Source: Thermoanaerobaculia bacterium
GTDB taxonomy: Bacteria; Acidobacteriota; Thermoanaerobaculia; Multivoradales; UBA5704
Length of the DNA: 35,743 bases
Assembly (NCBI GenBank): GCA_036277235.1
Contig: DASUNJ010000528.1
Coordinates: forward strand, 1-35,743
Reading direction: 5' to 3'
In this document: positions 29,701-32,700 of the stretch, piece after piece
How the letters are laid out: every line of letters starts with the position of its first letter
How positions within the stretch are numbered: the first letter of the stretch is position 1
Position numbers and translations under genes: made by a program
The notes under the pieces: generated by a model
The model's input: only the letters and a program-made list of their open reading frames with translations
The model's database searches: none
Told to the model about the DNA's origin: nothing

Positions 29701-32700
29701 CGCCGCCGGCTGAAGGTGCCAAAGGACCTAAAGGACGTAAAGGACTTAAAGGATCAAGGACGTCCTTGGTGTCCTTTGAGTCCTTTCCGTCCTTTACGTC
29801 CTTTACGCCTGATTCAAGCGTGAGGACTTCCAACCCGGCCGGCAGCCGCGGCCGCATCTCCTCCTGGCTCACCACCCGCCGCACGCCGGCATCTTCGAGA
29901 ATGGCGGCGAGGCGCTCCGCGGGCTCCTCGGGATCGAGGGGGAGATAGGCCGCTCCCGCCATGAGCGCGCCCAGGGACGCCACGACCAGGTCGGGGGAGC
30001 GTTCGCAGCAGACCGCCACCAGCTCCTCGGGCTCGATCCCCATCCCGACGAGATGGCCCGCCAGGCGCCCGGCCCGCCGCTGCAGCTCGCCGTAGGTCAG
30101 GGAATCCTCGCCGCAGATCACGGCCACGGCCTCGGGCGTGGACTCCGCCTGCTCCGCGACGAGATCGGCCAGGCTGGCCTCGCGCGGGAAGTCGGCCCCC
30201 GTGCCGTTGAGCTCCACCAGGAGCTGCCGTTCCTCGGCCGCGGTGAGGAGCGGCAGGGCGGACACCGGGCAATCCGGGCCGGCGGCGATCCCCTCCAGCA
30301 GGATGGCGAAGCGCTCGGCAAGGCGCTCGACGGTCACCGCGTCGAAGAGGTCCGTGTTGTAGTCGAAGTCGGCGATCAGGGAGCCGCCCGTCTCGCCGAG
30401 CGACAGGGTGAGGTCGAACTGCGCGAGCCCCAGGTCCAGCGGGACCGACTCCAGGCGCAGCCCGCCCAAATCGACCACAGCCGGCACGCCCAGGGCGAAG
30501 CCGGTCAGGTCCTGGCCGTCGGCCAGCTCGGCCCGCTGCCAGACGCAGAGGACCTGGAACAGGGGCGAACGGCTGGAATCGCGCTCCGGCTGCAGGCGCT
30601 CCACCAGCAGCGGGAAGGGCAGCCCCTGGTGCTCGAAAGCGCCCAGGACGTCCCGGCGCGCCGCGTCGAGGAAAGCCGCGAAGGACGGATCGCCGCCAAA
30701 TCCGGCGCGCAGCACCAGGGCGTCGACGAAGTAGCCGACGACGCGGGCCAATGCGGCATCGGAGCGGCCGTGGGCCACCGTCCCCAGGAGAAGGTCGTCG
30801 TCGCCCGTGATGCGGTGGAGGAGGACCTCGAAGGCCGCGGCCAGGGTGACGAAGGAAGTGCTCTGCCGGCGGCGGCCGATCTCCTTGATGCGGCCGGTGA
30901 GCCGCGGATCGAGGGCGCGCGAGAAGGTGGCGCCGCTGTAGGTCTGCACCATGGGCCGCGGCCGGTCCGTGCGCAGGCTCAGGGTGGGCAGGTCCCCTCC
31001 CAGACGCTCCTGCCACCACGCCCACAGCCTCTCCCCCTCGGGTCCGGCCAAGCGCTCCCGCTGCCAGGCGACGGCATCGGTATAGCGCAGGGCGGTTTCC
31101 CCCTCTCCCGGAGGCTGGGAGGGGATGGGAGAGGGGGCCTGGGGGTGAGGGGCCGGGTAGAGAGAGCCGAGCTCCTCCAGCAGGATGCCCAGGGACCAGA
31201 GGTCCACGACGATGTGGTGGAAGGCCACGAAGAGCACGGCGTCTTCAGCTTCACGGAAAAGAATGACGCGCAGCAACGGGCCGGCCGACAGGTCGAAGGG
31301 CCGGCGGGCTTCCTCCGCAAGGCGCTCCGCAAGGCGATCACTCAGGGCCTCGGTAGCATCCTCTTCGGTGAACCAGACGGTGGCGCTCTCCGCGACCCGC
31401 TGCCGCGGCTCCCCGTCCACGATCGGGAACGTGGTGCGCAGGGTGGCATGGCGGTCCACCAGGGCCTGGAAGGAGCGGCGCAGCCCGTCGGCGTCCACCG
31501 GCCCGCGCAGGCGGACCGCGCTGGGCACGTTGTAGGCCGGGCTCAGCGGGTCGAGCTGGTGGAGGAACCAGAGGGAAAGCTGGTTGTGGGCGAGGGGATG
31601 GTCCCCGTGCTCCGGTCCTACCCGCTGCGGCGCGGAGGTTGGCTGGGCCGGCGCGGGTTGTTCGAGGAATCGCGCCAGGTCGGCCAGGGTCAAACCGTCG
31701 AAGAAGCGGTCAAGCGGGAGCGCGAACCCCCAGCGGGCCTCCACCGCGTGCAGGAGCTGCACGACCTGGAGGGAGTCCAGGGGGTATTCGGCGAGAGGAC
31801 GCTGCGCGTCGATCTCGGCCCGCGACAGCCGGGCACGGCGCGCCAGCTCGGCGGCCAGCCACTCCGCGGCTCCGTCCGCGGGCGTTTCGTCGGGTGCCGC
31901 CGTCTCCGCTCCCGTCTCCTGCCAGGTCCAGACGGAATCTAGAGAGCCCGCGAGGAAGGCCGCCTTCGCCGCGTGGCGCTGGACCTTGCCGCTCGAAGTC
32001 TTGGGCAGGGCGCCGGGCGGCAGGAGCGCCACGGCATGGGCTTGGACCTCGTGCTCTTCCGCCAGCGCGCCGCGGATCGCCGTGACGACCTCGCCCAGGT
32101 CGCCGTGCCGCCGGGTGCGCTCCACCTCCTGGACGACGACGAGGCGCTCCTCGCCCTCCGCCCCCTCCACGTTCACGGCGAACGCCGCCCCGTGGCCGCT
32201 GCGCAGGGCCGCGTGGCTGGCCTCCACCGTCGCTTCCAGGTCCTGGGGGTAGTGGTTGCGCCCGCGGAGGATCAATAGATCCTTGAGCCGTCCGGTGACG
32301 AACAGCTCGCCGCCGGCCAGGAAGCCGAGGTCGCCCGTGCGCAGATACGGCCCTTCGGTATCTTCGCCAACCCTGGGCAACTGCGCACCGAAGGTGGACG
32401 CCGTGATCTCCGGCCGGTTCCAGTAGCCCCGCGCCACGCTGGGGCCGCGGACCCAGATCTCGCCCACCTCGCCGGGCGCGGAGGGCGCCCCCGAGGCATC
32501 GACGATGGCGATCTCATGCCCGGGCTGGCGGGCGCCGCTCCCGACGAGGGTCCGGCCGTCCTCCTCCGCGCTCACTTCGAGGACCCGGTGCCGCTCCAAC
32601 TCGCCGGTATCGAAACGCCGCACGACCGCTCCGGAAGCGCGCGGGCCGGTGGAGACGAGCAGGGTTGCCTCGGCCAATCCGTAACAAGGCATGAACGCCT

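Follow-up and report, generated by a model that had tools for sequence, protein, structure and literature searches.

How does a gene for a large biosynthetic enzyme come to carry, within its reading frame, a long palindrome built of nine-nucleotide repeats? The question is raised by contig DASUNJ010000528.1 of a Thermoanaerobaculia bacterium, whose whole stretch of 35,743 nucleotides (hereafter the window) was analyzed, and in which such a palindrome lies inside an adenylation domain (A domain) of a hybrid nonribosomal peptide synthetase-polyketide synthase (NRPS-PKS). Based on comparison with other genomes and with orthologous genes, we consider it probable that the palindrome is a foldback repeat of a new architectural type, similar to repetitive extragenic palindromic (REP) sequences and their REPIN doublets, which was captured in a permissive loop of the A domain and is carried there as a disordered peptide, with the mRNA hairpin as a by-product. 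An original prediction, made from the sequence alone, had named an RNase III site, a ribosome pause, a cruciform and a protein-binding array as candidate roles, together with a mobile or expanding element. The last of these suits the palindrome best, since at least 115 other loci scattered among genomes show the same architecture.

The palindrome and its dispersed relatives

The original prediction placed the element at 29715-29809; the boundaries used here are 29713-29807 (95 bases). It is an imperfect palindrome of 9-nt units of the form NN[A/C]AAGGAC, about five per arm, around a perfect AAGGAC|GTCCTT centre at 29756-29767, and its + strand reads AAGGTGCC AAAGGACCT AAAGGACGT AAAGGACTT AAAGGATC AAGGAC | GTCCTTGGT GTCCTTTGA GTCCTTTCC GTCCTTTAC GTCCTTTACG. 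On this strand AAGGAC starts at 29722, 29731, 29740 and 29756, with the variant core AAGGAT at 29749 and a degenerate AAGGTG at 29713, and GTCCTT starts at 29762, 29771, 29780, 29789 and 29798. The string AAGGACNNNAAGGAC, with at most one mismatch, occurs seven times in the window, always in the palindrome, against an expectation of 0.11. Tandem Repeats Finder reported two period-9 arrays (29721-29753 and 29760-29807), a repeat finder returned 33-nt arms that are 91% complementary together with several slipped registers, and the best gapped arm-to-arm alignment score was reached by none of 2000 shuffles. The predicted palindrome of AAGGAC-core 9-mers around a perfect centre is thus plainly seen in the sequence. 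The count of five 9-mers per arm stands approximately, but one unit (+ strand, about 29749-29755) has only 7 nt through a 2-nt deletion, and the spacers are poorly complementary: most of the arm complementarity comes from the 7-nt cores, with the variable dinucleotides pairing only about half the time, and the arms differ by four mismatches and one 2-nt indel.

The host gene is read from the - strand, on which the mRNA-proximal (5') arm (29762..29807) consists of five 9-nt units (GT-AAAGGAC, GT-AAAGGAC, GG-AAAGGAC, TC-AAAGGAC and AC-CAAGGAC), all fitting the family consensus, and is translated as VKDVKDGKDSKDTKD. The mRNA-distal (3') arm (29713..29761, - strand) carries the GTCCTT-type units GTCCTTGA, TCCTTTAA, GTCCTTTAC, GTCCTTTAG, GTCCTTTGG and CACCTTCAG, including the shortened 7-nt unit, and is translated as VLDPLSPLRPLGPLAPS. 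The G+C content is 0.474 for 29713-29807 and 0.495 for 29715-29809, the latter agreeing with the 49% noted earlier, against 0.69-0.79 in the flanks and 72-78% for the gene. RNA folding of 29690-29830 (- strand) predicted a stable hairpin of -70.4 kcal/mol (z = -8.7), with none of 200 shuffles as stable, and DNA folding of the same interval gave z = -7.6. No terminator-like site and no canonical promoter were found in 29300-30200, and a search of the palindrome region against Rfam 15 returned only miRNA-precursor look-alikes below the gathering threshold.

To place the palindrome among other bacterial sequences, one genome per species (596 Gb in total) was scanned with the pattern AAGGACN3AAGGAC-N(3-30)-GTCCTTN3GTCCTT, which specifies 24 bases. 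At least 115 loci (L001-L115, none overlapping the window) match this nonamer hairpin pattern, where about 0.1 would be expected by chance. Among the matches listed, the great majority come from metagenome-assembled genomes (MAGs) of Thermoanaerobaculia or other Acidobacteriota, often with several loci per MAG, and a few from Chlamydiales, Planctomycetota, Verrucomicrobiota, Gemmatimonadota and Bacteroidales. The same hairpin architecture is present in more than 100 independent assemblies, including contigs of at least 1 megabase. A looser detector applied to the 8-kb loci revealed extra copies within them, with 123 raw element calls reduced to 118 after removal of overlaps. Family elements have a median length of 88 bp, a modal arm of four units and loops of 0-43 nt; their units read N-N-[A/C]-A-A-G-G-A-C, the spacer triplet taking 38 different forms, and 97 of 100 inverted tandem-array pairs in the family loci have a period of 9. 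Spacer complementarity is 0.70 between the arms of one element, compared with 0.47 for arms taken from different elements as a control, and one-armed arrays are rare (3 vs 69 paired). Subfamilies with a conserved loop occur in either orientation, within and between genomes, which indicates copying, not independent origin. Neither arm order was found in viral contigs, so the element is not carried by phages. Rfam 15 matched only tRNAs in 18 family loci, and a full-text literature search for the repeat strings and for REP in Thermoanaerobaculia yielded general REP work with no description of this family, which is apparently undescribed.

With genes approximated by open reading frames (ORFs) supported by G+C content at third codon positions (GC3), most family elements proved to be intergenic, with a stop codon 1-50 nt before their start. 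Gene pairs around an element are convergent in 27 of 58 cases and divergent in 7, compared with 64 and 70, respectively, of 311 pairs without one; the convergent enrichment is significant by Fisher's test (odds ratio 3.4, p = 9e-5). Only 11 of 105 copies have a T-rich tail (at least four T in the 6 nt after the stem). Stem mismatches on the transcribed strand are G:U and A:C in nearly equal numbers (12 vs 13 and 18 vs 17); because G:U is not in excess over A:C, there is no sign of RNA-specific selection, a comparison that does not separate the RNA from the DNA level. The role of the family, if it has one, would most likely be that of a 3'-end RNA hairpin or a DNA structural element. No terminal tag was detected, GTAG lying near the left end of 8 and CGTC near the right end of 11 of 117 copies.

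The collected loci display further variants. A subfamily with a GAGGAACATGTCATTCACC-like loop has seven copies in both orientations in two Thermoanaerobaculaceae MAGs (L003 at 6807, L017 at 3488 and 7287, L044 at 7237, L062 at 298, L068 at 745 and L109 at 5132), and another with loop AATAACCGTTATT has four copies in one Chlamydiales MAG (L053, L085, L104 and L105). The same 9-nt period also occurs with the cores CACGGAC, AACGGATTA, CACGAATTA, CGCGGATCT, AGGGAC, CACGGAGGA and ATGGACGATA, at L011 1778-1869, L022 1832-1898, L029 4757-4819 and 7203-7304, L043 5595-5694, L111 2246-2329 and L079 1746-1824, the last having a period of 10 nt. Judged from these sequences, a period of nine seems to be a more general trait than AAGGAC as the core, several cores having [A/C]NGGA in common. 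An obligatory order with the AAGGAC arm first, suggested by 150 vs 0 occurrences in the forward loci, was ruled out by 103 metagenome loci in the reverse order, (GTCCTTnnn)n-loop-(nnnAAGGAC)n. At 11 or more of these 103 loci the element encodes the N-terminus of putative lipoproteins (L124 at 675-728, L125, L144, L158, L173, L175, L181, L193, L201, L204 and L205): the GTCCTT arm encodes ..LAVLAVLWVLV, the signal-peptide core, the loop encodes SAC or SSC with the lipobox Cys, and the AAGGAC arm encodes SKDxKDDND, followed by long (T/S)D repeats. L163 contains, at 7109-7450, a head-to-tail tandem array of the reverse-order element with a 98-bp period and at least four copies, running up to the contig end.

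The insert in the adenylation domain and its history

The host gene (23783..33628, - strand) encodes a hybrid NRPS-PKS of 3281 aa with the organization FAAL-T-C-A-T-KS-AT-KR-T and opens a co-directional gene cluster whose synteny extends to at least six other Thermoanaerobaculia assemblies. The affected A domain (29075..30157, - strand; Pfam AMP-binding, ORF residues 1158-1518) is the second AMP-binding domain of the gene, and its A3, A5, A7, A8 and A10 motifs are intact. The palindrome, read on the - strand as VKDVKDGKDSKDTKD|VLDPLSPLRPLGPLAPS, sits between cores A2 (YLPLD) and A3 (YTSGSTGTPKG), which bears out the proposed in-frame insertion in the variable A2-A3 stretch. The domain had been called essential, which holds for the product and not for the cell. 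From A2 to A3 it spans 87 residues, as opposed to 70 and 74 by the same measure in the window's two sibling A domains, a difference similar to the roughly 18 residues predicted (83 vs 64-66), but about 22 ancestral residues were replaced in the process, so that the insert was not simply added.

The original prediction also held that the 9-bp unit keeps the element in frame, and here it needs correction. The 9-nt period holds each arm in a constant frame and is not enough alone to keep the gene open, because just one sense frame of the three can be read through the palindrome and the second arm is rescued by the 2-nt deletion. Since one unit is short by 2 nt, the two arms lie in different reading frames: the deletion moves the second arm from the GTC-CTT-TAA frame into CCT-TTA-xGT, and the frame thus avoided would meet the TAA/TAG of the GTCCTTTAA and GTCCTTTAG units. 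Across the family, element lengths are spread evenly over the three classes modulo 3 (41/41/41 of the 123 calls). Codon usage in the insert is foreign, with a GC3 of 0.44 against 0.92 in the rest of the gene and three TTA codons, a codon found once among the 418 Leu codons elsewhere. AlphaFold2 modelling of the 512-residue A domain with 39 homologues gave a mean predicted local distance difference test (pLDDT) score of 89.9 and a predicted template modelling (pTM) score of 0.85. The insert (model residues 129-159) is coil with mean pLDDT of 47-57 in 10-residue blocks, is flanked by confident strands at 121-124 and 166-172, and forms a surface-exposed loop. The model thus predicts an intact A-domain fold with the insert as a disordered loop rich in Lys-Asp (KD) and Pro-Leu (PL).

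To compare orthologous A domains, syntenic clusters were fetched via homologues of the neighbouring DUF5916/CBM9 gene, the named ones of which are all from Thermoanaerobaculia. Five syntenic orthologues of the host gene (L221, L230, L231, L233 and L234; 57-61% identity) have an ordinary, non-repetitive loop (...LSLDxDxxEIxRExDxPLVxTAVATxLACVIYTSG) with no AAGGAC seed, and the 12 closest A-domain homologues in the database (52-66% identity) likewise lack the insert, having about 17 residues fewer there. The closest orthologue, L224 (71% identity; the L225 and L226 assemblies have the same sequence), carries a one-armed array, GGC AAAGGACAA CAAGGAATC CAAGGACGA CAAGGACAA CCAGGACAA CAG, with five units and no GTCCTT arm, whose translation runs in another frame and gives GKGQQGIQGRQGQPGQQ. 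About 22 residues of the ancestral loop have given way to the array in the window as well as in L224, and the boundaries are identical (left ..E/S-S/E-Gly, right x-Leu-Ala-Cys). Because the L224 array occupies the same junctions, the simplest history suggested by these alignments is a single loop replacement in the common ancestor, with L224 losing one arm afterwards.

In the history that we favour, the palindrome is a copy of the dispersed, probably mobile foldback family, whose arms are tandem 9-nt arrays around a short variable loop. In the ancestor of the window and L224 organisms, one copy would have replaced about 22 codons of the variable A2-A3 surface loop, and we propose that it survived because the loop is permissive and the copy was open in the frame used, the 2-nt deletion sparing the second arm the TAA/TAG of its own units. 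The A domain would still fold, with the element translated as a disordered KD/PL-rich loop that is presumably neutral for the enzyme, and any hairpin forming in the mRNA in vivo would be incidental; the L224 lineage would later have lost one arm.

Genuine in-frame copies are rare, about 3 of about 120. Besides the window copy they comprise L084 906-985, which takes the place of the same A2-A3 loop in a non-orthologous A domain (41% identity) without lengthening it and reads SLESLQSFVS in its second arm, and L106 3174-3261, located in tilS (tRNA-Ile lysidine synthetase) of a Holophagales MAG. The latter falls in the linker between the PP-loop domain (38-216) and TilS_C (416-485) and reads GGQQGQQGLQGQQ...SLVSLESLLS. 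Ten of 13 apparently intragenic elements (L017, L019, L028, L034, L047, L090, L035, L074, L103 and L109) were rejected on the basis of Pfam and context, as they lie upstream of the real start or at the gene end. Stop-to-stop ORFs run through elements just upstream of the real starts of genes for a carboxyl transferase, an alpha-amylase, an RseP-like protein and a sulfatase (at L017 3488-3576, L047 4818-4902, L028 2899-2979 and L019 6728-6784), and automated gene calls in these high-GC genomes are likely over-extended at such sites.

The neighbourhood of the host gene is itself conserved. The DUF5916/CBM9 gene (window 20688-23775) lies between megasynthase genes, co-directional with them, and is conserved in at least six Thermoanaerobaculia assemblies (L221, L224, L230, L231 and L233 among them). 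An S-adenosylmethionine decarboxylase-like gene adjoins it in the window, in L219-L223 and in L224-L226; in L224 this gene is upstream of the host-gene orthologue, and it was not called there in L230, L231 and L233.

Persistence of the cores and alternative explanations

Several observations weigh against a passively tolerated mobile repeat. Identity between the window and L224 genes at fourfold-degenerate sites is 60%, compared with 44.5% expected at saturation, so the split between the two is deep, and yet 28 of 30 positions in the AAGGAC cores are identical, as opposed to 4 of 15 in the spacers. Both arrays also remain AT-rich with rare codons (GC3 of 0.44 in the window and 0.18 in L224, vs 0.92-0.93 in the rest of the genes). 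Should the insertion date back to the split, passive tolerance leaves the conserved cores and foreign codons unexplained. Protein-level selection cannot account for the cores, because the two arrays are read in different frames; the remaining candidates are a constraint at the nucleotide level and homogenization, by slippage within the array or by gene conversion from other copies. Repeated targeted insertion appears less likely as their source, because the deletion boundaries are shared. Moreover, two unrelated A domains carry the element in the same loop, followed in both by Ala-Gly-Gly-Gly (GCSGGCGGYGGY) directly after the second arm (GCC GGC GGC GGC at 29699..29712 on the - strand of the window), which points either to a strong selective filter on surviving copies or to a target preference of the element. 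None of the six host-gene orthologues has this AGGG, which may be a part of the element or a selected flexible linker. The longest flanking direct repeats are distributed as in a shuffled-partner control and gave no evidence of target-site duplication, though short ones could be missed because the element ends are fuzzy, and a crude regular-expression screen of 93 short neighbouring ORFs in the 8-kb fragments found no HUH/Y1-like transposase motif. The mobility of the family is an inference.

The core conservation invites the explanation that selection on the nucleic acid itself preserves the array or hairpin within the gene, which we regard as possible but doubtful. Candidate roles include an mRNA hairpin acting as an entry site for RNase III or decay, or as a translational pause some 130 codons into the A domain; a Shine-Dalgarno-like AAAGGA array that pauses ribosomes; and an array bound by a protein recognizing AAGGAC at 9-nt spacing. 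Such selection would accommodate cores conserved despite different frames at near-saturated synonymous sites, the rare AT-ending codons kept in both copies, the very stable predicted hairpin and the recurrence of the same hexamer core across phyla. The hairpin, however, is dispensable, because L224 has lost the second arm entirely; five orthologues work without any array, the stem mismatches show no G:U vs A:C asymmetry, and the core conservation could also arise through the homogenization mentioned above.

An origin in situ is improbable. Here a 9-nt array would have grown by replication slippage to the state seen in L224, and a template switch would then have made the inverted arm in the window lineage, with no copy arriving from elsewhere. 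A one-armed array at the same site, the slippage-prone nature of tandem 9-mers and arms that pair in several registers speak for such an origin. Against it, the palindrome shares its unit consensus, unit number and arm order with over 100 elements that lie between genes in related genomes; family arrays with a single arm are rare, the ancestral orthologue loop offers no AAGGAC seed, and the window arms are not exact inverted copies.

Retention of the insert for its peptide, as a charged KD-rich and PL-rich loop serving for instance as a docking or interaction surface, has very little to recommend it. An open frame is maintained for 32 codons and the model places the loop at the surface, but L224 reads the same DNA as GKGQQGIQGRQGQPGQQ and L084 reads the second arm as SLESLQSFVS, and because these translations differ there is no conserved peptide; disorder is predicted for this stretch, which also has a foreign codon usage. 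A comparison of the insert peptide with 5.8 billion proteins turned up no shared word triplet, and an exact look-up of a protein encoded in the window matched no record. That the palindrome is a product of misassembly, for instance a fold-back chimera or mis-join of the kind that can arise when de Bruijn assemblers are confused by palindromes, is hardly credible given a gene that stays in frame past the second arm into the A3 motif, arms that differ from each other, the same architecture in over 100 independent assemblies with contigs of a megabase or more, and three independent assemblies that agree on the related L224 array.

Relation to known repeats and significance

The captured foldback repeat that we favour is closest in its behaviour to known palindromic repeats while differing from each in architecture. 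REP elements occur for the most part between genes that are convergent or co-directional, about 20 bp or less from the stop codon upstream, with stop codons abutting the repeat, and occasional copies wholly within ORFs encode 20-30 residues (PMC3733652). Like REP and REPIN, the nonamer family consists of dispersed imperfect palindromes with several loci per MAG, found near 3' ends, enriched between convergent genes and occasionally intragenic, and its median length is near the REPIN total. Unlike them, its arms are tandem 9-nt units and not a single REP, the variable dinucleotides of the units change from copy to copy, and there is no terminal GTAG or CGTC tag. REP and REPIN are mobilized by REP-associated tyrosine transposases (RAYTs), and the crude motif screen of the 93 ORFs found no RAYT adjoining nonamer copies.

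The original prediction had drawn a parallel with Rickettsia palindromic elements (RPEs), which is apt as to behaviour, not homology: a palindromic repeat is inserted in frame in protein-coding genes and translated as an extra surface peptide without destroying the host protein, as in the window, L084 and L106. The nonamer family belongs to another phylum, and because the host is a member of Thermoanaerobaculia, membership of RPE-1 to RPE-8 is not expected; its sequence appears unrelated, although no RPE sequences were compared with it. RPEs also lack the nonamer substructure, and intragenic copies are the rare exception in the nonamer family. Short tandemly repeated repetitive (STRR) sequences of cyanobacteria are short tandem units in intergenic DNA, with a period of 7, and arrays in opposite orientation can form hairpins; to our knowledge, they have not been described inside A domains. 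The nonamer family differs from these in its period of 9, its cores and its taxon. Miniature inverted-repeat transposable elements (MITEs), such as Correia and ERIC, and eukaryotic foldback elements are likewise small, non-coding, dispersed and hairpin-forming, and the inverted arms of the eukaryotic foldback elements are also made of short tandem repeats, but the nonamer elements are much shorter and have no detectable target-site duplication. MITEs have a parent insertion sequence, and none is known for the nonamer family, for which no search was made. Intrinsic (Rho-independent) terminators resemble the family in being hairpins right after stop codons, frequent between convergent genes. The nonamer stems, at 30-45 bp, are long and relatively AT-rich, in contrast to the short GC-rich stems of terminators, and the T-rich tail that few copies possess is absent from the window copy.

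A broader proposal, which we put forward as speculative and would not expect to hold, is that 9-nt foldback hairpins with an [A/C]NGGA-type core (AAGGAC; CACGGAC, AACGGATTA, CGCGGATCT and CACGGAGGA) constitute a widespread, undescribed class of bacterial repeats whose core is kept at the nucleotide level even in coding regions and in any frame. If so, the core would have a sequence-specific partner, either a protein or the anti-Shine-Dalgarno tail of the ribosome, or there would be an active homogenizing or copying mechanism, and the element in NRPS genes would be a built-in regulatory or pausing signal and not a passive passenger.

The finding adds a repeat family of unusual architecture, a foldback with nonamer periodicity, to a phylum that has been little studied and from which such elements appear to be undescribed. 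It is of value for annotation, since gene callers read through the elements and several apparently intragenic cases are really upstream of the true start codon. The window copy also represents a clean natural experiment: an adenylation domain can take about 30 foreign residues in place of its A2-A3 loop, which is relevant to NRPS engineering. Finally, the same cores kept in two frames after deep divergence lead to the question as to whether selection, gene conversion or targeted re-insertion maintains them.

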